Of a DNA stretch of 32,000 nt, positions 983 through 29,481 are shown piece by piece. The stretch is taken from assembly GCA_965204545.1 (NCBI GenBank), contig CBDBFA010000003.1:2658357-2690356 (forward strand), written 5' to 3'. Source of the stretch: Opitutales bacterium (lineage in GTDB: Bacteria; Verrucomicrobiota; Verrucomicrobiia; Opitutales; UBA2995). Below the pieces are notes generated by a model, which did not search any database, was not told where the DNA came from, and saw only the letters and a program-made list of their open reading frames with translations. Position 1 is the first letter of the stretch; every line of letters begins with the position of its first letter. The position numbers and the translations under genes were made by a program.

Positions 983-1042
983 TTAATCGTCCCTGAGATA
1001 TTCAATACTGTTCAGTGTGGTTTGATGGTCCCTCTGAATTTC

Positions 1043-1464
1043 CTCTCGCCAAGCCGCCAAGCTGCCAAGTTCGCAAAGAGAAGGCACAAAGGGCTAGAAT
1101 GAACTGCAAAGCAGTTCCACTCCAAAGCCCAGTGTCGCGAAGCGCACACTGGGTAGAATGGGAAACAAATCACGAACCCCAAAGGGGTTCCACAAGAGGC
1201 GCTGGGGGCGCCAGTTTTCAGTGGAGAGTGGAGAGAAATAAATCGTGATCATGATCGTGATCGAATTGTAGGAGCAGCTTTGCGCCTCGGTTCCGCCAGA
1301 AGTTCTCCAAGCAGTCGCGGCATAAAGCCGCTAAGCTCGAATTTGGCTGGAATGAAAACCCACCCTATCATGCCCCTTTGCCAGAATTAATTCCTCATTC
1401 CTAATTGGCGCCTCCGGCGCCTCTTGTGGTTCCCTCTTTGCGATTCTTGGCGGCTTGGCGAGAG
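1043..1464. repeat. Intergenic mosaic A: ORF-less 422-bp element with nested inverted repeat modules between convergent genes
   Basis: Order on the + strand: CTCTCGCCAAGCCGCCAAG box 1043-1080; GGCACAAAGG 1082-1093; three small hairpins 1101-1190; CCACAAGA+GGCGCTgggGGCGCC 1191-1212; GTGGAGAG x2 1221-1235; GATC block 1241-1267; degenerate TGTAGGAGC hairpin pair about 1267-1340. These are followed in reverse orientation by TAGGAAT+GGCGCCtccGGCGCC 1391-1421 and the box 1432-1464. The 19-mers 1043-1061 and 1446-1464 are exact reverse complements. Confidence 0.9.
1101..1132 (+). repeat. 32-bp repeat GAACTGCAAAGCAGTTCCACTCCAAAGCCCAG (copy 1)
   Basis: Exact reverse complement of 27499-27530. Its first 17 nt form the hairpin GAACTGC-AAA-GCAGTTC. 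A sister hairpin GAACCCC-AAA-GGGGTTC lies at 1174-1190, and CCCAGTGT...ACACTGGG lies at 1128-1153. Confidence 0.9.
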
Positions 1465-1478
1465 TTTGCTCTACAGTC

Positions 1479-3548
1479 TCACAGGGTGGGGTTTTCGTAC
1501 CAGATGACGCCGAGGTTGTGTCGCTCCTCGCAGGTAAGGACATCGAGGTCGTTATCCCCGTCGAGGTCGATCAATTCGATGCGGTCGAATTTCACCCCTT
1601 CCTCCCTTCCGCTAATTTCGCGGGCTTCCCAATTCCCCATGGGACCCCTTTTCATCCAGAACACCCCGGTGGCGATTTCGGAGTTTTCACAGGTTACGAC
1701 GAGGTCGGGGACGCCGTCGCCGTCGATGTGGCCGATTGCTACAGCCTTGCCGGTACCGGCTTTCCCGGGCATGGGGATGGATTCCTCCTTCCAACGGGGG
1801 TGTTCCGCCCTTTCCCGGTAGGCTGCTACCAGGTCTCCGTCTCGCGTGGCGGCGATGAAATCATTCCATCCATCGGCATTGAGATCGCCGTAATCCATGA
1901 ACATCACCTCGGCTCCTTTTCCGGCCACATAGCGCTTCTTCCACGGTTGATACAACCTTTCCGGTCCTGGGTTTTCCAGCCACCAAATGCCCGATTCGGG
2001 GCCGTTTCTCTGCGAGAAGGCGATATCCGTAAGCCCATCCCCGTTCAGGTCGAGAGCACGCAAGGACATGACCCAGTCCGCTTGAGTCAGACGGCGCCAT
2101 TTCCAATCGGCCAAAACCTCTCCGTCTTCCGGGGCTTGCAGCCAACCAATTTGCCCTGTTGCGCCTTTTGAGCCGACCACCAGATCCACTCCCCGTTTTT
2201 GGTCAAGCTGAAGGGGCAGGGCAAACATCCACCGGCTTTCACTTTGCAAAGCCGGGAAGGCCCGGGTTATCCAAGGGGAGGCGGTAAGGTTTCCGCTCGG
2301 ACCGGACGGGGAAAAGTGAGCGTAGACGGTGCGTTCCTCTCCCTCGGTTGAGGATACGACATCGAGCTGGCCGTCGTGATTCAGGTCGATAAAGACGGCG
2401 TCCTCCGGAGACTTTACCTGGCCGGCTACGGCGTAAGACCACCGGTCCCGAGCTTTTTCCGGACCCGGGTTGAGGTATACCCGAACCTCGGATCCCTGTT
2501 CCCAGCCGGAGGCGATATCGGGCAGTCCATCCCCGTTGATATCCCCCAGGCGAACCCCATCGGCTCCCCGCGACCCGGCATCGATAGTGTGGCGCGGCCA
2601 GGGCTTGCCCTCGGCCTCACCGGGATAGCCCGTTGCCTTCAAATAATGACGGTAGGTGGAATTGTGATCCAGGGCCTCGCTACTCGTCAGGCTGTAGAGG
2701 TATACGCCGAAGCGCAATCGCAGGCGTTTCCCGGTCCTGATGGATTTCACCTGTTCTTCTCCCCTGCCAAAGTCCTGATCGGAAAAGGGATTGGCTGCGG
2801 TAAATCCGTAATCCCTTGAATGAAAGCGACTGGGCCGGAAATTTCTTGGATCGGGCATGAGCATGGCTCCGGTTCGTTTGCCCTGGATGAGGCCGGAGTA
2901 GTCGCACCAATCGGCCCGCCGGCCCCAGCCTTCGCTTTCGTTGACGTGGCCCCTGCTGTTGAGGATTTGACCGCTTCCTTCCTCCACTCGCAGGGGAGTT
3001 GCCATTCGTATCCCCACTCCCATTTCCTGCTGATCGCCAAAGTGGACGGTTTCAACGGCCAGAAAAGTGGAATCGAATTGAAAGAGGTATCCGTGAGGGA
3101 GGCGAAGGAGGGTGTGCTGGGCCCGCTCGGTACAGAACACACGGTCCTTGTGCCGAAAAATATTTTCCACGGTAAAATCTATGCGGTCGTGGCTCACCTC
3201 GGGTTCTTGCACAAAACCTCCGTGTCGGATTTCGGATTTGTTACGCCAGAAGTCCCCGTCATTGATTTTGCCGAAACCCATCCAGATTCCGGGATGCATG
3301 GTGTCGTGGTCCATGAGGTCGATGCCTTCCCGGGGAGGCCAGTGCCGCGTGACCTGAATTCCGTTGGGCGCCTTGATGTTGGAGAAGTGGGGACGTTTGA
3401 CCTTTTCGTCCCTATAGGCATAGGTGGTTACCAACAGGCTCCCGTCGTAGATCTCAATCCGGCCTTTCCCCGGCTCATGCCGGACCGCGAAATTGGCCGA
3501 GGACCAATTAGCGGCGGCCAGGAGTATAATGAAGATGAGCCGAAACAC
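1479..3548 (-). CDS. Secreted fusion protein: N-terminal PmoA-like (DUF6807) domain + C-terminal FG-GAP/VCBS repeat beta-propeller
   Basis: 689-aa ORF with a GTG start at 3548 and the signal-like N-terminus MFRLIFIILLAAANWSSA. The N-terminal half has KRPHFSNIKAPNG..DLMDHDTMHPGIWMGFGKINDGDFW, typical of the PmoA/DUF6807 family. The C-terminal half has at least 6 FG-GAP-type repeats (GDINGDGLPDI, DLNHDGQLDVV, DLNGDGLTDIAF, GDLNADGWNDFI, HIDGDGVPDLVV, DLDGDNDLDVLT). Confidence 0.75.
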   Translation of the reverse strand: MFRLIFIILLAAANWSSANFAVRHEPGKGRIEIYDGSLLVTTYAYRDEKVKRPHFSNIKAPNGIQVTRHWPPREGIDLMDHDTMHPGIWMGFGKINDGDFWRNKSEIRHGGFVQEPEVSHDRIDFTVENIFRHKDRVFCTERAQHTLLRLPHGYLFQFDSTFLAVETVHFGDQQEMGVGIRMATPLRVEEGSGQILNSRGHVNESEGWGRRADWCDYSGLIQGKRTGAMLMPDPRNFRPSRFHSRDYGFTAANPFSDQDFGRGEEQVKSIRTGKRLRLRFGVYLYSLTSSEALDHNSTYRHYLKATGYPGEAEGKPWPRHTIDAGSRGADGVRLGDINGDGLPDIASGWEQGSEVRVYLNPGPEKARDRWSYAVAGQVKSPEDAVFIDLNHDGQLDVVSSTEGEERTVYAHFSPSGPSGNLTASPWITRAFPALQSESRWMFALPLQLDQKRGVDLVVGSKGATGQIGWLQAPEDGEVLADWKWRRLTQADWVMSLRALDLNGDGLTDIAFSQRNGPESGIWWLENPGPERLYQPWKKRYVAGKGAEVMFMDYGDLNADGWNDFIAATRDGDLVAAYRERAEHPRWKEESIPMPGKAGTGKAVAIGHIDGDGVPDLVVTCENSEIATGVFWMKRGPMGNWEAREISGREEGVKFDRIELIDLDGDNDLDVLTCEERHNLGVIWYENPTL

Positions 3549-3607
3549 GGTTTGAATTTACGGTTTCTAGCCGGGGACAGAAAGTTAATTTTTCGAGCAA
3601 TCAGAAA

Positions 3608-4024
3608 TTAACCACAGAGGACACAGAGAGCACAGAGAGAGGCGCCGGGGGCGCCAATGAGGATTTATAAAGTTGCTGAGATGCTGAGTTGCCGAGTTGC
3701 TGAGATTTCTTGGAATCGTGATCTTGATCAAGATCGTGATCGAAAATTCCCGAGGAATTGTCTCTCGCAAAGATCGCCAAGAAGAAGAGGGAACCACAAA
3801 CCGAGCTTCGCAATGCTACGCAGGTCAAGAAGGTACAAAATGCTCAAAACAAGGAATTAACGGAGGGCGGGTTTTCCAACCCGCCAATTTGTAGGGGCGA
3901 GGCATGCCTCGCCCACATTCCTGCCTTCAACGCCGTTGGCGTTATCATGATCGAGATCACGATGATTTACTTCGTGACCCTTCGTGTCCTTCGTGGATTT
4001 TTCCTTCTTCCTTCTTCCTTTCTT
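3608..4024. repeat. Intergenic mosaic B
   Basis: Modules in order: TTAA+CCACAGAG/GACACAGAG/AGCACAGAG 3608-3640; GGCGCCgggGGCGCC 3641-3655; (AGTTGCTG)x4 3671-3704; GATC block 3714-3748; CTCTCGCAAAGATCGCCAAGAAG 3762-3791; AACGGAGG+hairpin GGCGGG-ttttccaa-CCCGCC+CAATTT 3858-3890; TGTAGGGGCGAGGCATGCCTCGCCCACA 3890-3917; GATC block 3944-3967; TTCGTGNCC x3 3971-3996; TTCCTTC run 4001-4024. Confidence 0.9.
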
Positions 4025-5120
4025 GCCGGGGGATTTCCACCTCGTAGAGTTGGGAATGACCGGTTCGGTTGGAGGTGAATAGCACGCGCTTTCCATCCGG
4101 GGAGATATTGGGGTGGGGATGGGTATGCTGGGGGGCATAGACCTCAACGGGTCCGTCGTCGTAGGGGCAATGATCGGCGTTCCAGTGGTCGCCCGCATTG
4201 GTTGCCTCGGTCAGGCAGAGCGGGACCGGTTTCGACAAACCTTCACCGAGGTGAAACAATAGCAGGCCAAGGTCCGGATTTTTTGTGTCGCTCACCATCC
4301 ATTGGCCGGTTGGATCGACCATGGGGTGCCAGGCGTTGAAAGCGCACACTTTGCGAGCGGCGCCGGTATCGGTATGGATGGCGATTACTCCATGGGGCCA
4401 GTTGGTGGTCATAATCTCCCTGCTTCCCGGTCGCCAGGTTTCGTGCACGATCCATTCTTTTTTTGCCGCGTCCCGTCGGTAGACCAGACGGTTATCGCTT
4501 CCGTCCCGCCGCATGACCCAGATCCGGGAATGATAGGGTCCGGCATAGCGAAGCCAATTGGAATCCTGGGGATGAAATTGGGGATGACCTATGGAATCGC
4601 GTTCGAGAATTATTTGGGAGCGCAAGGTAGCTGTTTCCAGCACTATCATTCTAGCGGTTGTTCCGGTCTTGATGGGGACGGCCCAAAAGCAATCGTCCGG
4701 GCTGAGAGTGGTGGTTCCCATAGCTGCTCCGACCATGCCTTTCTCCCGGATATTCGAGCTTCCGAAGTCGAGTACCTGTTCTTCCTTGAAGGTTTCGGTG
4801 TCCACGCGCCAACCTCCCGGACCGGCGGTAAAGTAGACATGGCGGCCATCCCGGGAGGGGTGGATGGACCATTCGTTGAGGTCCGGTCGGTCGGTCAGTT
4901 GCAGCAGCCGATAGGAATCGGTTGGCAGAAGGTAGAGTTGGGGCGAGCCCGAGCGGTGGCTGACGAGGACGAGGTGTCGCATGTGCCGGTCCCAGGCCGG
5001 GATGTAGTAGAAGGGGTGGTGGTGAATGGACGGGTGGTCGGTCAACTGACGAACCGAGGCCCCCGTAACCGGATCCTGAAACCGACGCATTTCGGATGGA
5101 TACTGCTTCCCTTTGCTCAC
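3957..5120 (-). CDS. Oligogalacturonate-lyase-like (PL22/Ogl-like) beta-propeller protein, cytoplasmic
   Basis: The 507-aa track ORF is over-extended into the upstream gene. I place the start at GTG 5120-5118, which overlaps the upstream TGA (5119-5117) as GTGA. The alternative is ATG 5090. The N-terminus VSKGKQYPSEMRRFQDPVTGASVRQLTD...LYLL...QLTD resembles, from memory, the start of enterobacterial Ogl. TolB/WD40-like repeats follow. The last ~22 codons (PRQERKKEEGKIHEGHEGSRSKSS) are encoded by repeat modules. Confidence 0.6.
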   Translation of the reverse strand: MSKGKQYPSEMRRFQDPVTGASVRQLTDHPSIHHHPFYYIPAWDRHMRHLVLVSHRSGSPQLYLLPTDSYRLLQLTDRPDLNEWSIHPSRDGRHVYFTAGPGGWRVDTETFKEEQVLDFGSSNIREKGMVGAAMGTTTLSPDDCFWAVPIKTGTTARMIVLETATLRSQIILERDSIGHPQFHPQDSNWLRYAGPYHSRIWVMRRDGSDNRLVYRRDAAKKEWIVHETWRPGSREIMTTNWPHGVIAIHTDTGAARKVCAFNAWHPMVDPTGQWMVSDTKNPDLGLLLFHLGEGLSKPVPLCLTEATNAGDHWNADHCPYDDGPVEVYAPQHTHPHPNISPDGKRVLFTSNRTGHSQLYEVEIPRQERKKEEGKIHEGHEGSRSKSS

Positions 5121-6103
5121 TTGCGGGGAAGTTGGAGGATGCGCTCGGCATTGGCGCTGAAAATCTCTTTGGGCAGTCCTCCAGCGGCGGTGAGCGTTTC
5201 TCGAATCCCGGAGAAGGGAAAATCGGTGGCAAACAGGCATTGGGAGGGGCCGAAAAAGGCCAAGCCGGCTTCCATGGCCAAACGGGAACCGAATGTGGCT
5301 GTGTCGGCGTAAAATTTGCCGAAGGCCTGGACCGGCTCGATGGAAAGTTCGGGCCTTGTCTCTCCGGGCCGATCCGGGGAGTGGCGGGGATCCCTTGCAT
5401 CGAATCCATGTTGCAAACGCCCTTCCATCATGGGAATGGCGCCGCCGGCATGGTGGGTGATCACCTTCAGCTCGGGCCATTTATCGAACAGGCCGGCAAA
5501 AACGAGGCGTCCGGCGCAGATACCGGTTTCGTGAGGCCAGCCGAAGGCCCACCAGAGGTCGTATTTGGAAAACTCCTCCCCCGGGTAGTCTCCCGGTGCG
5601 ACTCCCCGGATGGGGTGAAGCCAAACGGGCCGGTCGAGTTGAGCCATGAGCTCGAAGAGGGCCAGAAACTCGGGTCGGTCCAAGGGCAGGCCGTTGACGC
5701 TGGTGTAGAGTTGAACCCCCAAGGCTCCGAGTTGACCGATGGCGTAGCTGGCTTCTTCAAGGGCAGCTTCGGGACAGTTGAGGGGAAGGGATGCGACAAA
5801 ACCCGGAAAATGGTTGGGGTTTTCCGAACTCCACTGCGCCATGGCTTCATTGCCGATTCTGGCCAATTGGGGAGAATTTTCCGCCGTGGTTATCATTTCG
5901 GGTGAGGGGGAGCTGAGGCTCAGTATCTGACGGTAACCGGGGAACTTTTCCATCAGTTCGATTCTCTCCTTCCGGTCGCACATGCCCGTCCTGTCCACGG
6001 CCCGGTCGAACATGGGAAGCGCTCGCTTTTGCACGGCCCGACAGGCCTCGACGTAAGGGGGAGGCAGGCAGTGATTGAAGACGTCGATGCAGGAGTGGGT
6101 CAT
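5117..6103 (-). CDS. Amidohydrolase-2 family (PF04909-like) metal hydrolase, candidate sugar lactonase
   Basis: 328-aa ORF with an ATG at 6103. It starts MTHSCIDVFNHCLPP (H-x-H-like metal site) and has conserved HHAGG and ATDFPF near the C-terminus, as in the ACMSD/LigI/sugar-lactonase group. No signal peptide. Confidence 0.65.
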   Translation of the reverse strand: MTHSCIDVFNHCLPPPYVEACRAVQKRALPMFDRAVDRTGMCDRKERIELMEKFPGYRQILSLSSPSPEMITTAENSPQLARIGNEAMAQWSSENPNHFPGFVASLPLNCPEAALEEASYAIGQLGALGVQLYTSVNGLPLDRPEFLALFELMAQLDRPVWLHPIRGVAPGDYPGEEFSKYDLWWAFGWPHETGICAGRLVFAGLFDKWPELKVITHHAGGAIPMMEGRLQHGFDARDPRHSPDRPGETRPELSIEPVQAFGKFYADTATFGSRLAMEAGLAFFGPSQCLFATDFPFSGIRETLTAAGGLPKEIFSANAERILQLPRK

Positions 6104-7099: not shown

Positions 7100-7105
7100 G
7101 ACGGG

Positions 7106-7322: not shown

Positions 7323-7346
7323 TTCTTTCCCCAAATTCCTTTTAAT

Positions 7347-19360: not shown

Positions 19361-19380
19361 GCATCTCATCTATGGTTCCT

Positions 19381-19424
19381 CACTCCACCATTCCATCATT
19401 CCCTCCTTCTCCTCCTCTCTCACC
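19381..19424 (-). repeat. Composite GGAGGAGAAGGAGGGA(A/G)TGATGGA(A/G)TGG module (reverse orientation)
   Basis: The reverse complement of 19381-19424 aligns with 29352-29382 over about 30 bp. It ends a few nt before the ATG of paralog 2. Confidence 0.8.
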
Positions 19425-22313: not shown

Positions 22314-24073
22314 TTCTCTTTAGGCGCTTCGGAATCCTGGCGGTCTTGACGCTTCTTTTGCTTGGCCCGGCAGCTTATCCGCAGGGGAGCAAAGCGGGTG
22401 ATTCCAAGCCGCTGACGGTAGAGGAAATAAAAGCCATTGCGGAGAATTACGGGCAATTCGCTCCCGAGGATGCCTGGGTGGAGGATCCGGATTTCGCCTA
22501 TTACGGCAGCGAGAACGAATGGACCCGGCGGCAGTTTTCCGCGGTGAGGGCGGAAATGCTCTACAAGCGCCGGGGGCAACGGCAGATGTTGAAGATTCTG
22601 GAAGGGGACAAGGACGAAGCCATCGCTTTGGCCGAGTTTCGCCTGGATGAGGATGCCACCGACGCGGAGTCCTGGTTCATCCTGACGGTGGCCCATTCGG
22701 TAAGGGGGGAAGTCGGGAAAGCCATGGAGTACATGCGCAAGGCTTTGCAGAACGGTATGGAGTTTTCCCGCTTCCTGGCCGGTCCCCGGGATCTGTTAAA
22801 ATCCCTTACGGACTCGCCTGAATTTCAGGCTGTGGCCGAGGAAAAGGCAGTTGGGTTGATCCATGGGCCCATGTTGGGGTCGGTAACCAGTGAAGGAGCC
22901 CGTTTCTGGTTCAGGACCATGGAAGAGGATACTGTGGAGGTCCGCTGTTACGACCAAAGCGGGCGCTTGGCCGGCAAAGCCTCGGATCGAGCCGAGGCCG
23001 GGGCGGATTACACGGTTGTAGTGACGGTAGAAGCCCTGCAATCCGACACGCAGTACCGCTATGATGTGCTGGTGAACGGAACTCCTGTGCTGAGGGATGC
23101 CGGGCTCACCTTCCGCACCTACCCGGAGAGGGGCAGTTCGGGTTCATTCAAGATCGGTGTAGGGGGATGTGCCGGCTACACACCCAGGTATGAATACATG
23201 TGGTCCACCTTGGCGGCGCGGAATTTGGACGCCATGTTGTTGCTGGGAGACAACGTCTACATCAACATGCCGGAAATGCCGGGAACCTTTCACGGCTACA
23301 CTTACTACCGCCGGCAATCACAATCGGATTTCCGAAAACTTGGGCATACCACTGCCCTATACGCCATCTGGGACGATCACGATTCGGCCACGGACGATGT
23401 CTGGATGGGGCCGTATAGGGACAGGCCGGTCTGGAAGCAGCCCATGGTCGAAGTATTTCAGCGCAACTGGGTAAATCCGGGAGGAGGCGGGCCGGGTTGG
23501 CCGGGTTGTTGGTTCCAATTCTCCCTGGGTGACGTGGACATCTTCATGTTGGATGGCCGAACCTACCGGACCAATCCGCACAAGGAGGAAAAGACCATGC
23601 TGGGCCCCGTTCAGAAAGACTGGTTGTTGTCGGGTCTGAAAGCCTCCAAAGCTACCTTCAAGGTTATCGCCTCGCCGGTGGCCTGGGCTTCTGCAGCCAA
23701 ACCCGGTAGCAAAGATACCTGGAACGGGTTTATCGAGGAACGGGAAGAAATCTTCCGTTACCTCGGCCGGAACCGGATCGAGGGAGTGCTCCTCTTATCC
23801 GGGGACCGGCATCGAACCGACTTCTGGATAAACCCTCGGGAGGGGGATTATCCCCTCTACGAAATGAGCAGTTCCCGGCTGACCAACATCCATACGGCCG
23901 ACCTGATGCCTGGGGCTGTCTTCGGCTACAACGAGAAGCCCTCTTTCGGGATCCTGAATTTCCAAACCGGGCTGGATGACCCCGAAATGAGGTTCGAGAT
24001 TGTCAGCATCGACGACGAACTCATTTATGCGCATACGGTCAAGCTGAGCGAATTATCCTACCCGGATCCGTGA
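22289..24073 (+). CDS. PhoD-like metallophosphatase with Tat-type signal and ~190-aa helical N-terminal extension
   Basis: PhoD-type core: GPMLGSVTSEGARFWFRT, LLLGDNVYI, AIWDDHDSATDD, LLSGDRHRTDF. The N-terminus FRRFGILAVLTLLLLGPAA fits a twin-arginine signal. The start is uncertain among GTG 22289, 22298 and 22307, all of which lie inside the reverse CACAGAG repeat. Confidence 0.75.
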   Translation: MSSVFSVVILFRRFGILAVLTLLLLGPAAYPQGSKAGDSKPLTVEEIKAIAENYGQFAPEDAWVEDPDFAYYGSENEWTRRQFSAVRAEMLYKRRGQRQMLKILEGDKDEAIALAEFRLDEDATDAESWFILTVAHSVRGEVGKAMEYMRKALQNGMEFSRFLAGPRDLLKSLTDSPEFQAVAEEKAVGLIHGPMLGSVTSEGARFWFRTMEEDTVEVRCYDQSGRLAGKASDRAEAGADYTVVVTVEALQSDTQYRYDVLVNGTPVLRDAGLTFRTYPERGSSGSFKIGVGGCAGYTPRYEYMWSTLAARNLDAMLLLGDNVYINMPEMPGTFHGYTYYRRQSQSDFRKLGHTTALYAIWDDHDSATDDVWMGPYRDRPVWKQPMVEVFQRNWVNPGGGGPGWPGCWFQFSLGDVDIFMLDGRTYRTNPHKEEKTMLGPVQKDWLLSGLKASKATFKVIASPVAWASAAKPGSKDTWNGFIEEREEIFRYLGRNRIEGVLLLSGDRHRTDFWINPREGDYPLYEMSSSRLTNIHTADLMPGAVFGYNEKPSFGILNFQTGLDDPEMRFEIVSIDDELIYAHTVKLSELSYPDP

Positions 24074-24193
24074 ATGTGATCGTGATAGAATTAAGAAAAG
24101 CCTCTCGCAAAGCTCGCCAAGAACGCTGAGAAAAGGCACAGAGGCGCCGGGGGCGCCAATTAAGAATTAGGAATTAGGAATGGGGAATGAAAA

Positions 24194-24241
24194 GGCACAA
24201 AGGCACAAAGGCACAAAGGCACAAAGGCACAAAGGCACAAA
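24194..24241 (+). repeat. 8-bp microsatellite (GGCACAAA)x6
   Basis: Six perfect units that directly abut GTG 24242. Confidence 0.95.
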
Positions 24242-24292
24242 GTGAGCGGGTTCAGAGCATATCGAAATTTAATTGTTTGGCAAAAGGGAAGG
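24242..24292 (+). pseudogene. Truncated N-terminal remnant of a four-helix-bundle (TIGR02436-like) gene
   Basis: It translates to VSGFRAYRNLIVWQKGR, the family's N-terminal motif. The sequence then runs into a CTCTCGCAAAG box and hairpin repeats instead of the helical body. Confidence 0.55.
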
Positions 24293-24313
24293 ACTCTCGC
24301 AAAGAGCACGCAA

Positions 24314-24383
24314 GTAGGAGCGGCTTTAAGCCGCGATCCCATGAAACAGCCTCACCGCAATCGCGGGATAAACCCGCTCCTAC
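24314..24383 (-). repeat. 70-bp double-hairpin element (TGTAGGAGCGG.. type), copy 1
   Basis: GTAGGAGCGGCTTTAAGCCGCGAT ...spacer... ATCGCGGGATAAACCCGCTCCTAC. Its reverse complement aligns along its full length with 25852-25920. Strand is assigned relative to copy 2. Confidence 0.85.
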
Positions 24384-24474
24384 AGCTTGATACCACTACT
24401 CCCTTCTCCCCATTCTTAATTCTTCATTCCTAATTCCTAATTGGCGCCCACGGCGCCTCTTATCCGTGGTTTAT

Positions 24475-25650
24475 TCAGCTTAAGGCCTTTTCCAGGTTTT
24501 GCCAATTGGCTATCAGGTGCCCTCTGCTTTGGTGAAGTGTGTCGTCACCCGAATAAATCAGGAGGGTCTTGTCGTTCTTTCCATGATCATGGCGCTTCCA
24601 GTAATCGAGACCGGCAAAGAAGGAAGCGTTCAAGGTCTGCCCTGATTTAACTTCGATGGCCAGGCGCATTGGCCCTTGATCAAGCAGAAAGTCTATTTCG
24701 TTTTTGTGACTATCTCTCCAAAAAAACAAGTTCGAAGGCTCTGCGCGGTTGTATTGACACTTGAGGATTTCCGAAAAGACCAGGGTTTCAAAGAGGTAGC
24801 CGCGAAGCGGGTGGTGCTCCAACTGATATGGTTCCCTCATGCCAAGCAACCAGGATGCCAAACCCGTATCCACAAAGTACAGCTTGGGCCTCTTGACCAA
24901 GCGCTTGTTAAAATTGCTATGGTAGGGTTTCAACAGATGGATAACGTAGCTGGCCTCCAGCACCGATAGCCAACTCTTGGCCGTTTTGTAATCAATCGAG
25001 GCCTCATTACAGAGCGCCCCAATATCGAGGATTCTACCCGTTCGTCCGGCGCAAAGGCGCAGAAATGTCTGAAAGCTCGATAGATCCCGAATGTTAATCA
25101 ATTGCCTGACGTCACGCTCCAGATAGGTTTGGACATAGGCCCCAAACCAGAGACGCGGATTGGCCCCATGGATCGCGGTGGAGGGGTAAAGGCCTTTCCA
25201 TAGGATCTCATTGGCATTAACCGGCTTTTCCAACTCGCCCTTCGTTTCGCCAAAACTCAATGGCAGAAGCTTCAGGTAACCCGCCCTCCCCGCCAATGAT
25301 TGGGAGATCTTTTGGTCGAGTAGAAATTGATGGGAACCCGTCAGGATGAACCTTCCATTCCATCGTTTCCTATCTACGATTCCTTGCAAATAGGAGAAAA
25401 GCTCGGGCGCTTGTTGCACCTCGTCGATGACCGCGCCTTCGCCTAGAGCAGACAGGAATCCTCTAGGGTCGGAGTGGGCTGCCTCGCGAAGGTCCGGATC
25501 CTCCATGGAAACGTACGGTTTCTCCGGAAACGCAGTTTGAGCAAGCGTGGTCTTTCCGGATTGACGAGGCCCGGTGATGGCAACGACTGGAAACGTTTGA
25601 GCAAGCTCTTCACACGCGGTTTGAGCTATTCTCGGAACAATTTTGTGCAT
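24475..25650 (-). CDS. AAA+ ATPase with C-terminal DUF4143-type domain (AAA_14/DUF4143 family)
   Basis: Walker A is GPRQSGKTTLAQ, Walker B-like is GAVIDEVQ, and the length and layout are typical of the family. I prefer ATG 25650 (MHKIVPRIAQ...) over TTG 25680. The gene is visibly AT-richer than the sugar genes (by eye). Confidence 0.75.
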   Translation of the reverse strand: MHKIVPRIAQTACEELAQTFPVVAITGPRQSGKTTLAQTAFPEKPYVSMEDPDLREAAHSDPRGFLSALGEGAVIDEVQQAPELFSYLQGIVDRKRWNGRFILTGSHQFLLDQKISQSLAGRAGYLKLLPLSFGETKGELEKPVNANEILWKGLYPSTAIHGANPRLWFGAYVQTYLERDVRQLINIRDLSSFQTFLRLCAGRTGRILDIGALCNEASIDYKTAKSWLSVLEASYVIHLLKPYHSNFNKRLVKRPKLYFVDTGLASWLLGMREPYQLEHHPLRGYLFETLVFSEILKCQYNRAEPSNLFFWRDSHKNEIDFLLDQGPMRLAIEVKSGQTLNASFFAGLDYWKRHDHGKNDKTLLIYSGDDTLHQSRGHLIANWQNLEKALS

Positions 25651-25690
25651 ATTTTGGAATAAACTCCAAAATTTACACAAGTCAATGGAG

Positions 25691-26022
25691 AAAAGGATGA
25701 AGGCTGAAGGAGGAAGGCTAAAAATAAATCGTGATGGTGATCGAAAGGAGAATTGACTCTCGCAAAGCTCGCTAAGAACGCTAAGAAGTGCCGGGCGCGC
25801 GAATTACGAGATTTCATTCTCCAACATCAATTGATAACCTATTACAAAACTGTAGGAGGGGGTTTATCCCCCGATTGCAGTGAGGCTATTTAAAAGATCG
25901 GGGGATAAACCCCCTCCTACAGTTCTCCAAATCACCATCCCATGAACATTTTCTCCTTCCTCCCCCATTCCTAATTCCTGATTGGCGCCCCCGGCGTCTC
26001 TCATCTGTGTAATCCGTGGTCG
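25691..26022. repeat. Intergenic mosaic J
   Basis: Modules: AAGGATGAAGGCTGAAGGAGGAAGGCTAAA 25691-25724; GATC-type block 25727-25748; CTCTCGCAAAGCTCGCTAAGAACGCTAAGAAG 25757-25788; double hairpin 25850-25922; reverse TAGGAAT+GGCGCCcccGGCGTC 25962-25998; reverse CACGGAT 26002-26022. Confidence 0.9.
25850..25922 (+). repeat. 73-bp double-hairpin element, copy 2 (perfect 26-bp arms)
   Basis: CTGTAGGAGGGGGTTTATCCCCCGAT (25850-25875) and ATCGGGGGATAAACCCCCTCCTACAG (25897-25922) are exact reverse complements. The spacer is 21 nt, TGCAGTGAGGCTATTTAAAAG. Confidence 0.95.
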
Positions 26023-26051
26023 TTTCTTTTTTTCTTTCTCCAACTCTGGAA

Positions 26052-26188
26052 GTGAAAAAGGGGTCAGCCCTAGTATTGAAGTATTAACCATTGATGAGCA
26101 TGGAAAAGAAAGTTAATCCCAGTAGCGTAGAAATGGGGCGAATCAGAACCGTTCAATACTTCAATACTAGGGCTGACCCCTTTTTCAC
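26052..26188. repeat. 137-bp element with perfect 34-bp terminal inverted repeats (MITE-like or large hairpin)
   Basis: 26052-26085 GTGAAAAAGGGGTCAGCCCTAGTATTGAAGTATT is the exact reverse complement of 26155-26188. The spacer is 69 bp. The right arm ends 5 nt before ATG 26194. Confidence 0.95.
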
Positions 26189-26193
26189 CGTTC

Positions 26194-27384
26194 ATGATCA
26201 GGATTGAATCCATACGGGCTCGAACCATTCCGCTGCAGGCCGATTACCGTAATGCCACGGTTAGTTTTGCCGGGCTGACGGGATCGGTTGTGGCCATTCT
26301 GGCCAGAGGGGATGATGGATCCGTTGAAGTCGGCTATGGATTCGGGTCCATAGGCCGTTACGCCCAAACTGAAATGATCCGGGAGCGGTTTGGGCCTCGC
26401 CTGCTGCGGGCGGACCCTTCCGCCTACAACTGGGATGGATTCCCGGATCCCGTTCGGTTGAATCGGCTCATGCGCCGCGACGAAAAGCAAGGGGGTCACG
26501 GGGAGCGATCGGTTGCTATCGGAGCGATCGACATGGCGGCCTGGGATCTCTATGCCAAACTCGAGCGGAAGCCGCTCTTTCTCTGTCTGGCGGAGCGCTT
26601 TAACGGGGGCCGATCCGATCCCTCGGTCGAGGTCTATGCGGCGGGGGGATACTATTATCGTGAGGGAGGACGGGCCCGGTTGCGACGGGAGTTGGAGGGT
26701 TATCTGGAAAGGGGATTTCGCTCGGTCAAGATCAAGATCGGCGGCGCATCCTTGAAGGAGGATCTGCAGCGGATAGAAACCGCCATCGCCACGGTGGGTT
26801 CTCCGGGTGACGTGGCGGTAGATGCGAACGGCCGCTTCAGCGGGGAAGAAGCGCTGGAATGGGGAAGAGCCATGGAGGATTTGAACCTGCGTTGGTATGA
26901 GGAGCCGGTAGATCCATTGGATTTCGAGGCCTACAACCAGTTGGGTTCAGCTTACGGGCCGCCCCTGGCAACCGGGGAGAACCTCTTCTCCCTGCAGGAG
27001 GTAAAAAACCTGATTCACTACGCCGGGTTGCGTCCGGATCGGGATATTCTGCAGATGGATCCGGGTTTGGCTTATGGGGTCTCGGAATACCTGGAAATCA
27101 TCCAAGCCTTGGAAAGCGCCGGTTGGTCGCGGAGAAGCTGTTTCCCGCACGGAGGGAATTTGTTCAACCTTCACATCGCCCAAGGCCTGCAGATCGGGGG
27201 AACGGAAGTCTATCCCGAAGTTTTTGCCCCTCTCGGAGGATTTGGAGAGTCGGTTGAAATCGAGAACGGACGGGCCTCCGCTCCCGAGGTAACGGGTATC
27301 GGTTGGGAAACCAAGCCCGATTTGATGGATTGTTTCACAGAATTGAGGGCGATGGAGTGGGGGAGTGATGGAATTGTGGAGTGA
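26194..27384 (+). CDS. Enolase-superfamily (mandelate racemase/muconate lactonizing enzyme family) acid-sugar dehydratase, cytoplasmic
   Basis: 396 aa. K-x-K in SVKIKIGG, and metal ligand pattern VDANG / YEEP / ATGEN; PHGG follows. The last ~10 codons (MEWGSDGIVE) and the TGA lie in the GGAGTGATGG repeat. Confidence 0.75.
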   Translation: MIRIESIRARTIPLQADYRNATVSFAGLTGSVVAILARGDDGSVEVGYGFGSIGRYAQTEMIRERFGPRLLRADPSAYNWDGFPDPVRLNRLMRRDEKQGGHGERSVAIGAIDMAAWDLYAKLERKPLFLCLAERFNGGRSDPSVEVYAAGGYYYREGGRARLRRELEGYLERGFRSVKIKIGGASLKEDLQRIETAIATVGSPGDVAVDANGRFSGEEALEWGRAMEDLNLRWYEEPVDPLDFEAYNQLGSAYGPPLATGENLFSLQEVKNLIHYAGLRPDRDILQMDPGLAYGVSEYLEIIQALESAGWSRRSCFPHGGNLFNLHIAQGLQIGGTEVYPEVFAPLGGFGESVEIENGRASAPEVTGIGWETKPDLMDCFTELRAMEWGSDGIVE

Positions 27385-27530
27385 TGGAATGGGCGAGATG
27401 AGTTTCAGAGTTTAATCGTGATCGTGATCTTGATCGTGATCGAAAATAACGGAGGGGGGACATTCCTGTCCCCCAATTTTTCATTTAAAATAGGCACGCT
27501 GGGCTTTGGAGTGGAACTGCTTTGCAGTTC
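27351..27530. repeat. Intergenic mosaic K
   Basis: Modules: GGAGTGATGG-type run 27351-27393; GATC block 27414-27447; AACGGAGG+hairpin GGGGGACA-ttcc-TGTCCCCC+CAATTT 27447-27481; 32-bp repeat copy 2 at 27499-27530 (reverse complement of 1101-1132). Confidence 0.9.
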
Positions 27531-27703
27531 AATGCATGGCGGATGTAGGAAAGCTTATGGAAGAAGGGGTCAAGACGTAAAAAGTTATGCCATACTCCTT
27601 GGAGTACGCAAGGCATGACCCCGACGACCCAGGTGAGACATAATATTGCTGGCACGGATGCGAATGTAATGGTTATATTCGAGATTCAAAAGCCGTTTAA
27701 ACT

Positions 27704-29011
27704 ATGAAGCGTCGCCAATTTTTGGGTCTGGGTCTTACCGGAATGGCCGGTTTAGGAGGGCAAAGCCTTCTGGCCCGCTCGAAGGAGTCAGAAGCGCATT
27801 ATGCCAAAGCGGAGGACTTGAACCTCGAAATTACCGACCTGCGGACCTTTGTGGTCGATTCGGCAAACGACGAAAATTTCGTTTACGTCAAGATCTACAC
27901 CAACCAAGGAATAACCGGTCTCGGTGAAGGAACCATGACGGGCAAAGGACTTACGGTGGAAGCGGCCATTCAGGAGCACAAGCGCTATCTTCTAGGTAAG
28001 GATCCGACCGATATCGAACGCTTGTGGCAGGGTATGTTTCGAGGTCCCCGTTACCGGGGCGGCCCTATCCTCACCTCCGCCATCAGTGCGGTGGAGATCG
28101 CCTTGTGGGATATTCTGGGAAAGGCGCTGGGACAGCCTATCTGGAAACTTCTGGGAGGAAAGGCGCGCGATAAAGTCCGTGTCTATCCGCACGTGCGAAG
28201 CGGCAACGTTCTCATGCATCACCACCAGCCTCCCGGAACGCCGAAACCCGAACCGCTCTCATATCCGGAAATGTACTTGAAGCGGAAAGAACAGGGATGG
28301 ACCGCATGCAAGGCCGGTTTCCTGGAGGCCGAGAATAATCTGGTCGAGCCGGCCAAGATGATTCGAAAGGCCATCGACAGGCTCAGGCGGGTACGGGAAG
28401 CGGTGGGCGCGGATTTCGACATCTTGATCGATGCCCATGGGAAGCCGACAACGCCCATGGCGATTCAGTTTTGCCGCCGGGCGGAGGAGTATGATCCCTT
28501 CTGGGTGGAGGAAGCGACCCAGCAGGAAGACATTGGGGAGTTGGCTCTCCTGCGGTCGCAAACGGCCGTGCCTTTGGCCACAGGGGAACGATTGTTGACC
28601 AAGTACGCGTTCAACGAGATCTGCGCCAGGCACTTGGTGAATTACGTAAACCCGGACGTGGTCCATTGCGGAGGGATTGGGGAGATGCGTAAAATTGCCG
28701 CTTTGGCCGAGGCCTTTCGCATCGAAGTTTCGCCGCACAATCCGCAGAGCGAAGTAAGCACCATGGCCAGCCTGCACGTGTGCATGAGCACACCCAACGC
28801 CACCTTACTGGAAATCGGCTCTGGCCAGTCTCCCTATTTCCAGGACCTATTTTATGGTGGAGGGGTAGTATTTGAAAATGGATTCGCGTTACCGCCGGAC
28901 CGGCCAGGCCTTGGATTGGATCTGGACGAAACGGTAGCGGCCAAAATGCCCTATAAACCCAAGGACTGGAGCGCCCATCGTTGGCCCGACGGTTCCATTG
29001 GCGATCGTTAA
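27704..29011 (+). CDS. Enolase-superfamily dehydratase (galactonate/mannonate-dehydratase-like) with twin-arginine signal peptide
   Basis: 435 aa. The N-terminus is MKRRQFLGLGLTGMAGLGGQSLLARS (RRxFLG plus an h-region). The canonical barrel start follows (LEITDLRTFVV..VKIYTNQGITGLGE), then ALWDILGK, IDAHGK, VEEATQQED, ATGERL and HCGG. Confidence 0.75.
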   Translation: MKRRQFLGLGLTGMAGLGGQSLLARSKESEAHYAKAEDLNLEITDLRTFVVDSANDENFVYVKIYTNQGITGLGEGTMTGKGLTVEAAIQEHKRYLLGKDPTDIERLWQGMFRGPRYRGGPILTSAISAVEIALWDILGKALGQPIWKLLGGKARDKVRVYPHVRSGNVLMHHHQPPGTPKPEPLSYPEMYLKRKEQGWTACKAGFLEAENNLVEPAKMIRKAIDRLRRVREAVGADFDILIDAHGKPTTPMAIQFCRRAEEYDPFWVEEATQQEDIGELALLRSQTAVPLATGERLLTKYAFNEICARHLVNYVNPDVVHCGGIGEMRKIAALAEAFRIEVSPHNPQSEVSTMASLHVCMSTPNATLLEIGSGQSPYFQDLFYGGGVVFENGFALPPDRPGLGLDLDETVAAKMPYKPKDWSAHRWPDGSIGDR

Positions 29012-29188
29012 CCGGCATGTCTCACAAAATTCGTAGCGAGCGAATGGAGGTCGAGTGCTGGCGGGGGCTTCGTGCAGATTCGGGGGTGAAGCCGGGTCGA
29101 CACCCTGCAAAGTCCCGAATCCAACAAAGTCAGCGCCAGTGCCGACATACCTGAGCGCAGTAGAAAATTTGTGAGACATGCCGGTTAA
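29008..29188. repeat. 181-bp imperfect long hairpin / MITE-like element with 21-bp perfect terminal inverted repeats
   Basis: TTAACCGGCATGTCTCACAAA (29008-29028) is the exact reverse complement of 29168-29188. Inner complementary pairs are GTCG..CTGGCG 29050-29063 with 29134-29146, GATTCGGG 29077-29084 with CCCGAATC 29114-29121, and GGGT-cgac-ACCC 29094-29105. The left arm contains the TAA stop (29009-29011) of the preceding gene. Confidence 0.9.
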
Positions 29189-29332
29189 GGGGACCACCTC
29201 AATGTCGAAGGGTTCATTCAGGTCGGGAAACGGGGTCTTTTTTAGGGTGGTGTTGTTGCTGGTGGGTCTGTTTCGCTTAGGAGCGGGAGAAGTGCGAAAG
29301 ACCTGGAAGTAAATGGCTTCATTTAAACAAAT

Positions 29333-29469
29333 AACCACAGAGGGCACAGAGAGTGGAGGAGAAGGAGGGAGTGATGGAGTGGTACCTCTCTACCCATCAC
29401 TCCACCAATCGATCACGATTAATTTCAGCGCCTTTAGCCTTCATCCTTCATCCTTCTTCCTTTTCTCCC
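29333..29469. repeat. Intergenic mosaic L
   Basis: Modules: AACCACAGAGGGCACAGAGAG 29333-29353; GGAGGAGAAGGAGGGAGTGATGGAGTGG 29354-29382 with an inverted partner CCCATCACTCCACC 29393-29406; GATC-type block 29407-29424; CCTTTAGCCTTCATCCTTCATCCTTCTTCC 29431-29469. Confidence 0.9.
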
Positions 29470-29481
29470 TAATCCCTGTTA

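Follow-up and report, generated by a model that had tools for sequence, protein, structure and literature searches.

The window, a 32,000-nt stretch of an Opitutales bacterium genome (contig CBDBFA010000003.1), consists of genes separated by gaps rich in a small set of repeated words. It holds 41 short-period arrays (TRF), nearly all in gaps, together with one intact GxxExxY gene cassette and two 15–17-codon stubs of a four-helix-bundle gene. We mapped the following modules.

1043–1464, unstranded: complete ORF-less foldback (fold z = −10.2) with box arms outermost at 1043–1077 (+) and 1436–1464 (−), inner arms at 1185–1216 and 1403–1434 with the GGCGCC hairpin, and a GATC array (1241–1263) plus a degenerate REP pair at the centre; arms 100% (19 nt) and 84% (32 nt) complementary
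3608–3663, plus: array of three TTAA-CCACAGAG units, then a AGAGGCGCC-GGG-GGCGCC hairpin with AATGAGGA
3714–3790, plus: (GATCNN)n array, GAATTG, then box array CTCTCGCAAAGATCGCCAAGAAG
3857–3917, plus: TAACGGAGGG hairpin module, then a GTAG-tagged REP (GTAGGGGCGAGGCATGCCTCGCCC)
7104–7209, plus: GGCGCC hairpin, AATTAGGAATTAGGA and a GGAGTGAT/GGAATGGT array of about nine units (TRF period 8, 7.2 copies)
7293–7322, minus: array of three CACAGAG units, facing the left-hand modules within gap 7100–7346
13772–14292, plus: inserted, intact GxxExxY cassette (PF13366, 6e-39; TIGR04256, 2.6e-39) with a box arm (13773–13809, +), a 127-aa ORF (13810–14193), an inverted box arm (14199–14235) and a trailing CAC-type array (14258–14292) ending at the sulfatase ATG (14293); 37-nt inverted box arms, 89% complementary
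19243–19351, plus: decayed cassette, (GGCACAAA)8 followed by the first 15 four-helix-bundle codons (VSGVRAYQDLIVWRE)
19376–19421, minus: reversed GGAATGATGG-type and GAGGAG arrays (TRF)
21938–22314, unstranded: whole-gap foldback (z = −9.7; 33-nt arms, 88% complementary) with outer arms of three TTAACCACAGAG units (21938–21967, +; 22285–22314, −) around a CACGGAT array (21986–22016), reversed box arrays (22019–22060, 22182–22206), a GATC array (22207–22230) and a reversed GAAGG array (22245–22277)
24078–24130, plus: GATC block, GAATTAAG, then box array
24135–24460, unstranded: foldback (z = −6.4) with 50-nt arms of hairpin plus TTAGGAAT words (24140–24189 and 24411–24460, 86%) around (GGCACAAA)6 (24191–24241), a four-helix-bundle stub (24242–24290), a box (24294–24311) and a GTAG-type REPIN (24314–24383)
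25695–25787, plus: GAAGG array, AATCGTGATGGTGATCGAA, GAATTGA, then box array
25848–25924, unstranded: REPIN of two inverted GTAG-tagged REPs (28-nt arms, 100% complementary), with at least 10 copies of 93–95% identity at non-syntenic loci of relatives
25955–26020, minus: reversed arm with TTAGGAAT words, a degenerate GGCGCC hairpin and a CACGGAT/CACAGAT array
27351–27483, plus: GGAGTGATGG array overlapping the last codons of the ORF that ends at 27384, GATC array (27412–27446) and TAACGGAGGGGGGACATTCCTGTCCCCC hairpin followed by a T-run
27496–27535, minus: copy of module GAACTGCAAAGCAGTTCCACTCCAAAGCCCAG, with its other copy at 1099–1131 (+) and 20 matches in relatives
29331–29462, unstranded: CACAGAG array (+), a pair of GGAGTGATGG words, a reversed GATC block (29407–29426) and a reversed GAAGG array (29438–29462), without a box

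The words are restricted to DNA between genes, where they occur 50- to 250-fold above chance expectation. Within the window, CTCTCGCMAAG has 9 exact matches (0.04 expected), GCGCCAATYAGGAAT has 6 at up to two mismatches (0.20 expected) and CACRGAKNNCACRGAK has 10 at up to one mismatch (0.16 expected), 100% of them inside the gaps named in an earlier note on this DNA. CTCTCGC occurs 11 times in intergenic versus 0 in coding DNA and AATTAGGA 8 times versus 0; exact 16-mers with further copies elsewhere account for 47.5% of intergenic versus 1.1% of coding bases. The vocabulary proposed in that note is thus real, and a hand recount came within about 1 of its family counts. Its description of ten gaps as almost completely composed of words was overstated, since exact recurring 16-mers cover 45–76% of nine of them and only 16% of 13765–14253, which is mostly ORF. 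The latter interval is no bare gap: it holds a real gene (GxxExxY) and reaches 14292, the base before the sulfatase start (14293). Region 9078–9490, put forward as a word-free control, is indeed word-poor (6% covered, no foldback, fold z = +1.9), but this does not extend to divergent regions in general. Gap 25651–26193 is word-rich although its flanking genes are divergently oriented, and in 276 gaps of relatives we counted 6.3 words per kb in divergent, 6.2 in convergent and 5.6 in tandem gaps, on crude gene calls and with copy densities biased upward because the loci were fetched for containing the box.

The box (CTCTCGCAAAG/CGCCAAG), the CACAGAG and CACGGAT arrays and the GGCACAAA array each comprise about three tandem 8–9-nt units of the form NNC[AG]CNRAG, with an outer end of YTCTC or, in the Opitutales lineage, T[AG]ACCAC. 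They are variants of a single arm design, and the words as a whole make up the arms of foldback (inverted-repeat) cassettes. Arms of this design lie on either side of GxxExxY (PD-(D/E)XK nuclease) genes and of four-helix-bundle genes (23S-rRNA-IVS-type, S23p-like), and the centre of a cassette may hold one of these small genes, other repeats or merely a short loop. The GGCGCC hairpin-TTAGGAAT, (GATCNN)n, GAAGG and GGAGTGATGG words are lineage-specific and add further layers to the arms; none of the TTAGGAAT, GATC, GAAGG and GGAGTGATGG layers was seen flanking a gene of its own, and they could alternatively have arisen by slippage in spacer DNA. GTAG-type REPINs and TTAA-ended MITEs are interspersed among the cassettes. 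The gene-cassette arms, the single arm design and the REPIN/MITE admixture had escaped the earlier note.

We examined 73 metagenomic GxxExxY loci for which both flanking sequences were present: an array precedes the gene in 62 (at a median of 20 nt from the ATG), an inverted array follows it in 56, and 50 carry the two together. The two arms belong to one class (CGC or CAC) in 39 of 39 GxxExxY cassettes, and this class agrees with that of the closest relative by protein in 63 of 66 (null 33 ± 5), showing that arms and gene evolve as a single unit. Translated box arrays are also seen as miscalled protein extensions (SRKDAKIAK, LGELGVLARG). The proteins are 70–80% identical between phyla; a GxxExxY model gave weak generic PD-(D/E)XK matches (best Cas4 4ic1, E = 0.016), and no sequence relative was found in the PDB. 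Four-helix-bundle cassettes have the same arms and no nuclease. In the relative L045, an intact four-helix-bundle gene lies between at least 22 GGCACAAA units and an inverted (TTTGTGCC)4, and both window stubs match its first 15–17 codons. Copies are predominantly ORF-less or truncated, with 126 box cores and 189 arrays in 468 kb versus one intact GxxExxY gene, one intact four-helix-bundle gene and six stubs.

Word order and polarity are maintained in 121 further contexts in related genomes. Bigram counts across 55 loci of relatives, chosen for box content, which leaves order and orientation unbiased, were 20:4 for GATC→box, 17:5 for CAC-array→GATC, 8:1 for GAAGG→GATC, 8:0 for box→GATCCGG and 9:0 for GATCCGG→TAACGG. 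Words 5′ of the box share its orientation (TTAGGAAT 38:4, GATCGAA 26:2, GAAGG 21:1), and pairs face each other more often than they stand back to back (box 16:5, REP 12:1, CACAGAG 6:1). These counts support and extend the word order described earlier, in which a GAAGG run, a GATC block and a box follow one another; of its instances, 29407–29469 keeps GAAGG→GATC and lacks the box, and 3714–3791 keeps GATC→GAATTG→box and lacks the GAAGG run. The 35-nt string said to be common to 24078–24112 and the reverse complement of 22182–22216 is correct. Whole gaps fold back at z = −6 to −10 relative to shuffles, and their inverted, nested arms and recurring order agree with the earlier judgment that this is a structured system, not random low complexity.

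The GxxExxY cassette is an insertion into an operon junction, polarised by outgroups. Both the window and a 99% relative have the approximately 520-nt cassette between the SSF and sulfatase genes, and three relatives lack it (L209, L210 and L211/L212); in these the two genes are 19 nt apart, 11 nt apart or overlapping by 4 nt, at 95, 85 and 81% protein identity. The target site was without any box, and both arms came with the cassette. We recognised no target-site duplication at this insertion or at box foldbacks and found no transposase. An 84%-identical GxxExxY cassette occupies a different locus in L184, and in L004 gap 983–1478 measures only 7 nt. Genomes 88–96% identical have different content in orthologous gaps, and unit number varies between orthologues, showing that gap content turns over rapidly.

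The box occurs in many phyla (>12). A 19-specified-base box pattern matched at least 99 stretches, and the matches listed include Opitutales, Nitrospirota, Desulfobacterota, Gammaproteobacteria, Acidobacteriota, Chloroflexota, Bacteroidia, Planctomycetota, Lentisphaeria, Kiritimatiellia, Zetaproteobacteria and Chitinivibrionales. In distant phyla, the box is often a bare 61–102-nt foldback. The innermost word type flanks a predicted nuclease gene family in bacteria of many phyla.

We propose, with a probability of roughly 0.7, that the gaps are accumulated selfish foldback DNA, made of nested and eroding two-armed cassettes, and contain no host "language". Whole cassettes, arms and cargo together, would insert between genes and within each other, then erode through replication slippage that alters unit number, deletion between short direct repeats and recombination between dispersed words that swaps segments. 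The recurrent word order and polarity would reflect how layers are stacked along an arm, with the opposite arm giving the mirror image. The cassettes may move through a foldback or hairpin in DNA that a trans-acting enzyme recognises; the cassette's own predicted nuclease is the obvious but unproven candidate for this enzyme, its role being conjecture. By analogy with 23S-rRNA intervening sequences, transcribed copies would form long double-stranded stems cut by RNase III. Of the alternatives offered in the earlier note, nested mobile elements are the one favoured by the inverted nested arms, the insertion, the second empty gap and the box in many phyla.

The foldbacks could instead be stem-loops at transcript ends or between cistrons (terminators, mRNA stabilisers, RNase III sites) kept for host expression, a role likewise proposed for REP and BIME sequences. 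Whole gaps do fold far better than shuffles, many arrays start directly at a stop codon (TAA-CCAC...), 27447–27483 is a good hairpin with a T-run 65 nt past a stop codon (the sole good terminator-like site among the mapped modules), and RNase III does cut 23S IVS stems (PMC4990558). We nevertheless consider this unlikely: words are equally dense whether a gap is convergent, tandem or divergent (crude gene calls), terminator-like and promoter-like sites do not exceed shuffle expectation, orthologous sites can be empty or differently filled while flanking genes are conserved, and hairpin polarity in gaps 3549–3956 and 7100–7346 is wrong for the strand of the flanking genes. The arms carry no strand-asymmetric wobble signal, as sense-strand G·U-compatible mismatches show no significant excess (48 versus 34, p = 0.15), so that RNA-level selection on the stems is unproven. 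With no 3′-end preference, terminators at shuffle level and sites that can be empty, the suggestion of transcript-end modules is not supported, either by location or by sequence. Similarly improbable is homing, in which the bare box palindrome would be the recognition site of GxxExxY, cut so that the gene is copied in by repair and the arms are half-sites. ORFs between inverted half-sites without target duplication, the abundance of bare palindromes, an arm flavour that follows protein phylogeny and the PD-(D/E)XK fold of this predicted nuclease all suit it, but the sole polarisable insertion entered a box-less site and brought both arms, and non-nuclease four-helix-bundle genes lie between arms of the same kind.

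A somewhat lower probability attaches to iteron-like arrays bound by a nucleoid-associated or regulatory host protein, their arrangement reflecting chromosome organisation. The regular 8–9-nt period, with 3 to more than 20 units per array, fits such binding, and nucleotide-level conservation of the box between phyla implies recognition by something conserved. However, we know of no candidate host protein, the sites are dispensable in close relatives, and no conserved partner was found apart from the cassette's own cargo; protein binding is also compatible with mobile elements, the arms then being putative recognition sites of the mover. Plain microsatellite instability, meaning simple repeats made by slippage in relaxed intergenic DNA without mobility, is very improbable. 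It accounts for copy number that varies between orthologues and for families that are all tandem arrays of 6–9-nt units, but is already contradicted by the inverted, nested arms, the fixed order and polarity, the single 21-nt motif in many phyla and the 520-nt gene-bearing insertion. We give almost no credence to an assembly artefact or a chimeric low-complexity contig, for which nothing was found in favour, as the vocabulary and partly the arrangement recur syntenically in assemblies made independently by different projects, including 0.4–2.3 Mb contigs and chromosome-level records.

Several known repeats resemble the selfish cassettes in part. E. coli BIMEs and the boxA-boxB(n)-boxC elements of Streptococcus pneumoniae are likewise intergenic mosaics of a few motifs with a preferred order and a middle module that varies in number, but their sequences are unrelated, they have no gene cargo or cross-phylum distribution, and they comprise far fewer motif families and layers. 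The STRR heptamer arrays of heterocystous cyanobacteria are also 7-nt-class tandem arrays in intergenic DNA, nested with other small dispersed, mobile repeats; their unit sequences and phylum differ, and to our knowledge an inverted-arm, gene-flanking architecture has not been described for them. MITEs and eukaryotic foldback elements, the latter with long inverted arms of short tandem repeats, share the non-autonomous, inverted-repeat, mostly non-coding structure with tandem-subrepeat arms, whereas here no target-site duplication was seen and no cognate transposase or autonomous IS was identified. REP and REPIN-RAYT systems (PMC3116915), with GTAG-tagged palindromes (PMC3733652), are similarly intergenic, palindromic, high in copy number and arranged in inverted doublets, and 24314–24383, 25848–25924 and 3891–3917 look like genuine GTAG-type REPs or REPINs, with many 93–95% identical copies in relatives. 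The word arrays differ in lacking the GTAG/CGTC tag, in being gene-carrying arms of tandem units where REPs are single 20–40-nt palindromes, and in their occurrence in many phyla, REPINs being described as bound to a lineage and inherited vertically.

The 23S rRNA intervening sequences of Coxiella, Leptospira and others carry S23p or four-helix-bundle ORFs; that of Coxiella is viewed as a selfish element whose S23p ORF sits in a loop closed by a 28-bp inverted-repeat stem that RNase III cuts, with variable-copy tandem heptamers (GACAGAT, three copies) just upstream of the ORF (PMC4990558). The cassettes share the small TIGR02436/PF05635-family ORF in the loop of a terminal-inverted-repeat stem, short variable-copy tandem repeats immediately 5′ of the start codon, ORF decay and the view as selfish DNA. 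RNase III processing, established for the IVS, is hypothetical for the cassettes. Unlike the IVS in helix 25/45 of 23S rRNA, they lie between protein-coding genes, and their layered arms, almost wholly tandem units, also carry the PD-(D/E)XK nuclease gene or nothing.

The window, a polysaccharide- and sulfatase-utilisation locus (sulfatase, laminin-G proteins, SSF symporters, enolase-superfamily enzymes and a TonB-dependent receptor), comes from an uncultured Opitutales member (Verrucomicrobiota). Its nearest SSF symporter is annotated "Opitutae bacterium", and several "Opitutales bacterium" MAGs and metagenome contigs (L001, L003, L004, L030 and L043; L numbers denote loci fetched from relatives or other genomes) are syntenic with it at 86-97% identity. 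Rfam at gathering thresholds found no rRNA or other family in the whole window, and no tRNAs were found there. An exact look-up of one protein encoded in the window returned no record. The short intergenic words (a CGCCAAG-type tandem array, hereafter the box, with CACAGAG, CACGGAT, GATC, GAAGG and GGCGCC-hairpin families) proved real: CTCTCGCMAAG occurs 9 times (0.04 expected), the hairpin-TTAGGAAT junction GCGCCAATYAGGAAT 6 times (0.2 expected) and CACRGAK doublets 10 times (0.16 expected), all within the gaps named by the earlier note. Contrasts in k-mers between intergenic and coding sequence were stark, and TRF found 41 short-period arrays in the window, nearly all intergenic, with every word family a tandem array of 6-9-nt units. 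Exact 16-mers found again either within the window itself or in 372 kb of relatives' non-syntenic DNA cover 47.5% of intergenic bases vs 1.1% of coding bases; coverage is 45-76% in nine named gaps, so the earlier description of gaps "almost completely composed" of words was overstated, although its substance holds. The divergent control region (9078-9490), described as free of these words, has 6% coverage. Coverage by a 12-mer dictionary was dropped for 14- and 16-mers because chance matches made it uninformative. Since the same findings recur in independent assemblies, the mosaic is not the assembly artefact or chimera that the earlier note had allowed for.

The left-hand words of a gap reappear reverse-complemented at its right, forming inverted arms.

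Inverted arms in the window (left arm and right arm, length, complementarity)
1043-1061 and 1446-1464: 19 nt, 100% complementary
1185-1216 and 1403-1434: 32 nt, 84% complementary
13773-13809 and 14199-14235: 37 nt, 89% complementary
21935-21967 and 22285-22317: 33 nt, 88% complementary
24140-24189 and 24411-24460: 50 nt, 86% complementary

Whole gaps fold as single foldbacks (z = -10.2, -6.4 and -9.7), as against z = +1.9 for the control region. Pairs in relatives are more often facing than back-to-back (box 16:5, REP 12:1, CACAGAG 6:1), and hairpin pairing is kept across the stem variants GGCGCC/GGCGCC, GCGCCC/GGGCGC and GGCGCGC/GCGCGCC. As a test of RNA-level selection, we counted sense-strand G.U-compatible changes among arm mismatches, finding no significant excess (48 vs 34, p = 0.15). 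The words are also ordered. Across 121 box contexts of relatives, words lying upstream of the box share its orientation (TTAGGAAT 38:4, GATCGAA 26:2, GAAGG 21:1, CACAAAG 25:2) and lie at characteristic distances from it (GAATTGA 7 nt, GATCGAA 17 nt, arrays 55-80 nt, hairpin about 110 nt). Adjacent-word counts are strongly directional (GATC to box 20:4, CAC-type array to GATC 17:5, GAAGG to GATC 8:1, box to GATCCGG 8:0, GATCCGG to TAACGG 9:0). The recurrent order claimed from the window is thus supported well beyond it; two of the five examples first offered are incomplete, 29407-29469 lacking the box and 3714 the GAAGG run.

What had been listed as a gap at 13765-14253 holds a 127-aa ORF (13810-14193) exactly between inverted box arrays, encoding a GxxExxY protein (PF13366, PDDEXK_3, 133 bits, cut-off 22; TIGR04256, 134 bits, cut-off 35). 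We fetched 80 metagenomic loci encoding 57-75% identical GxxExxY relatives, 73 of them with both flanks. A same-strand array precedes the gene in 62 of the 73, at a median of 20 nt before the ATG, an inverted array follows it in 56, and 50 carry both. These arrays read YTCTC-[AG]C-NRAG-NN-C[AG]C-NRAG-NN-C[AG]C-NRAG in several flavours, CGCAAAG/CGCCAAG (the box), CACGGAG, CACAGAG, CACAAAG and CACGAAG, and therefore the box and the CACAGAG, CACGGAT and CACAAAG words are variants of one arm design. The arm class (CGC or CAC) is identical on both sides in 39/39 cassettes and is that of the nearest protein relative in 63/66 (null 33 +/- 5); gene and arms evolve as one unit.

GxxExxY/PDDEXK_3 comprises thousands of proteins, 70-80% identical across phyla; PDDEXK_3 is listed with function unknown and multiple transfers between divisions (PMC3424549). 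A sequence search of the GxxExxY nuclease against the PDB returned no relative, and its AlphaFold model (pLDDT 86) gave weak, generic PD-(D/E)XK matches in Foldseek, linking it to no specific nuclease class such as homing endonucleases. A link to reverse transcriptases was likewise dropped, its sole literature mention being incidental. Literature searches on the gene family, its TIGR/Pfam accessions and the box sequences returned primer coincidences and no description of the element, and we found no account of the arm design or its link to GxxExxY.

The cassette has moved. In relatives whose SSF symporter is 95, 85 and 81% identical (L209, L210 and L211/L212), the SSF-sulfatase junction is empty, with a spacing of 19 nt, 11 nt or a 4-nt overlap; in the window and in L183, a 99%-identical strain, an insert of about 520 nt occupies it. 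Made up of the two arms, the ORF and a trailing CAC-type array, the insert abuts the sulfatase start codon, now ATG 14293. Since the empty junctions lack the box, the GxxExxY cassette arrived with its arms, and an 84%-identical cassette lies at an unrelated locus in L184. With these inverted arms and an insertion into an operon junction empty in relatives, the nested mobile elements suggested by the earlier note were the right reading. Neither the polarised insertion nor the box foldbacks showed a recognisable target-site duplication, and no transposase was found.

Turnover extends to other gaps. The 496-nt gap 983-1478 shrinks to 7 nt between two stop codons in L004, and orthologous gaps of genomes 88-96% identical have common edges, differing interiors and varying array copy numbers. 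Where window 24146-24201 differs from L030, an 11-nt direct repeat, GAAAAGGCACA, marks both ends of the difference, a pattern that fits either a deletion between repeats or an insertion. Inside gap 29012-29481, the stretch 29150-29317 is the remnant of a PA14-domain gene, keeping the first ~100 nt and the last ~25 nt of the version at L001 9674-12235. In L001 and L003 another three or four genes come next; the window lacks them, and word arrays fill the deletion junctions. An AAA_14 + DUF4143 ATPase gene (24475-25680, minus strand), flanked by word-rich gaps, occurs in L001 and L030 and is absent at the syntenic L003 site, where only repeats separate PhoD from the enolase-family gene. Published lists count DUF4143 among the PD-(D/E)XK domains (PMC3424549), and this gene may be another selfish cargo gene.

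A second gene type occupies similar arms. Both (GGCACAAA)n arrays of the window precede GTGAGCGG...TATC(A/G)A(G/A)ATTT(G/A)AT(C/T)GTTTGGC, a leader that translates to (V)SG(V/F)RAY(Q/R)(D/N)LIVW(R/Q), the N-terminus of a four-helix-bundle protein; in the window the ORF exists only as 15-17-codon N-terminal stubs (19307-19351 and 24242-24290), and the 50-nt arms starting at 24140 and 24411 enclose the second as terminal inverted repeats. An intact gene with the same leader is present in L045 (TIGR02436, 132 bits, 7e-39), where at least 22 GGCACAAA units lead into it and the inverted array, reversed TTAGGAAT words and the hairpin come after it in that order. The L045 units (7828-8000) are perfect and run beyond the fetched end, an array far longer than any window copy. 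In L011 and L030, a box array precedes the same leader. Upstream tandem copy number varies (8, 6, 7, at least 12 and at least 22 among the window, L030, L001 and L045), as it does in the nearest described system, the 23S-rRNA intervening sequence (IVS). The Coxiella IVS, which carries an S23p ORF and has been called a selfish element, ends in inverted repeats that pair into a 28-bp stem, which RNase III cuts; immediately before the ORF come three tandem GACAGAT heptamers whose copy number varies among strains (PMC4990558). The window elements resemble it in their arms and variable tandem units, and their stubs probably belong to its ORF family, but they lie between protein-coding genes rather than in helix 25 or 45 of 23S rRNA.

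To map the distribution of the box, we used the pattern CTCTCGCAAAGNNCGCCAAGA, whose 19 specified bases lead us to estimate few chance matches in 596 Gb. It occurs in at least 99 stretches; among the matches listed, most come from four Opitutales genomes, the others from Nitrospirota, Desulfobacterota, several Gammaproteobacteria (including the isolate Thioalkalivibrio denitrificans), Acidobacteriota, Anaerolineales, Bacteroidia, Pirellulales, Lentisphaeria, Kiritimatiellia, Mariprofundus and Chitinivibrionales. In distant phyla the box usually forms a bare 61-102-nt foldback or surrounds a local REP pair; in Thioalkalivibrio, inverted CACGAAG arrays bracket the box arms, a layering as in the window. 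The hairpin-TTAGGAAT unit, GATC arrays, GAAGG, GGAGTGATGG, CACGGAT, GGCACAAA, TAACGGAGGG and GTAGGAGCGG were absent from all non-Opitutales sequence examined. The hairpin-TTAGGAAT unit has 91 copies, in 42 of 55 loci. Copies are mostly orphans: across 468 kb there are 126 box cores and 189 arrays, with only one intact gene of each type (GxxExxY and four-helix-bundle) and six four-helix-bundle stubs.

Phages were rejected as the vector, the exact box being absent from 2.9 million viral contigs and a generalised array, TCTCGCAAAGNNGCNAAGNNGCNAAG, present in only 24 IMG/VR contigs (L185-L208), with no GxxExxY or four-helix-bundle gene near it. These viral arrays are often found immediately ahead of a gene and back-to-back with an inverted copy; in L188, L195 and L201 the array sits beside a CAC-type foldback. 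A Desulfatirhabdium butyrativorans MAG (L012 3088-3353) carries three 82-nt box foldbacks in direct tandem, about 10 nt apart, in which whole foldbacks rather than units are repeated. In three unrelated genomes (L085 4530-4620, L102 and L063), a bare box foldback is followed immediately by similar coding-looking sequence (..ATCTTGTCGGATCTTCAGGG.. / ..TCTTGTCGGATCGCGAAGG..), a hint of another gene family habitually beside it.

Known repeat systems account for parts of the mosaic. Multicopy 20-40-nt palindromes with a GTAG/CGTC tag in inverted doublets, as in REP/REPIN, occur only at 24314-24383, 25848-25924 and 3891-3917; the first two are GTAG-tagged REP doublets (REPINs), and 25848-25924 has at least 10 copies, 93-95% identical, at non-syntenic loci of relatives. 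The word arrays (box, CACAGAG and others) carry no REP tag, no gene for a RAYT (Y1 transposase) was found in the window, and REPIN/RAYT (PMC3116915, PMC3733652) fits the GTAG modules only. The 61-200-nt box foldbacks of many genomes do have the form of MITEs (terminal inverted repeats, no transposase, multicopy), as do the foldbacks 26052-26188 and 29008-29188; TTAA flanks 29008-29188 and the CCAC arrays, where it could belong to the repeat itself, and no autonomous IS partner with the same ends was found. The 137-nt element 26052-26188 has perfect 34-nt terminal inverted repeats, GTGAAAAAGGGGTCAGCCCTAGTATTGAAGTATT, and recurs in L001 and as a partial copy in L048. The 181-nt foldback 29008-29188, with TTAACCGGCATGTCTCACAAAATT ends, is conserved in place in L001 and L003, has further copies at 80-89% identity (L003 19034-19210, L028, L018, L050 and L042), and represents a MITE family of its own or else a structured RNA. 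The STRR units of heterocystous cyanobacteria are CCCCAGT, TTGGTCA and CAACAGT; those of the window are different 6-9-mers in an Opitutales host. BIMEs, pneumococcal BOX, cyanobacterial STRR and small dispersed repeats, and foldback transposons are architectural analogues. We dismissed a CRISPR array from the sequence, unique spacers of constant length being absent, and an integron attC cassette, the ORF having inverted arms on both sides instead of a single downstream attC.

Readings in terms of gene expression fared less well. On crude gene calls, coding sequence carries 0.29 words per kb, against 6.2 in convergent, 5.6 in tandem and 6.3 in divergent gaps, with no preference for 3' ends. Promoter- and terminator-like sites are at shuffle expectation (for intrinsic terminators, 21 and 19 sites vs 18.3 and 19.1 in shuffles), and the sole site fitting an intrinsic terminator is 27455-27474. 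Because the sulfatase ATG 14293 sits in a word, we considered the purine-rich words as portable Shine-Dalgarno/start modules, an idea rejected as a rule since at 7100 it is the pyrimidine strand of the arrays that precedes the start codon. The short convergent gap 30757-30842 has no words and a plain GC-rich hairpin, AAACGCTCCGACGCAAGGGTCGGAGCGTTT, indicating that ordinary terminator-like hairpins coexist with the repeat system.

We rate the mosaic as one of foldback, IVS-like selfish cassettes. GxxExxY and four-helix-bundle genes lie in alike arms and one cassette is demonstrably inserted, which yields a concrete hypothesis of one selfish foldback family. On the boldest reading, to which we give a probability of about 0.3, foldbacks with arms of three 9-mers might constitute an unrecognised pan-bacterial mobile class: its own GxxExxY PD-(D/E)XK nuclease would move it via the arm arrays, four-helix-bundle (S23p/Avd-like) genes would be alternative cargo, 23S IVSs would be members that landed in rDNA, and the diversified class of this lineage, with REPINs, would make up most intergenic DNA. 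The S23p family and the origin of 23S IVSs have gone unexplained for decades (PMC4990558). The one-family hypothesis spans these and GxxExxY and offers a testable role for orphan gene families; its interest lies in an arm conserved across phyla and in a handle on two such families and the rRNA IVS origin. The work also singles out a lineage of Verrucomicrobia in which turnover of intergenic DNA far outpaces that of the genes, a property of use in strain typing and in studies of dense-repeat tolerance.

The arrays cause systematic mis-annotation and explain a common source of such errors, seen as array-extended ORFs, false starts and false C-termini. The SRKDAKIAK, LGELGVLARG and WRSWRLGES extensions on over-long database proteins are translated arrays. 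Within the window, the sulfatase was listed as starting at a TTG (14218) that belongs to the GxxExxY cassette, the real start being ATG 14293, and the listed GTG start of PhoD (22289) lies inside a CTCTGTG arm (22285-22314). The C-terminal codons (3957-3996) of the minus-strand gene 3957-5480 are read from a CACGAAG array and GATC block, and the last codons (27351-27384) of gene 26194-27384 lie in a GGAGTGATGG array.
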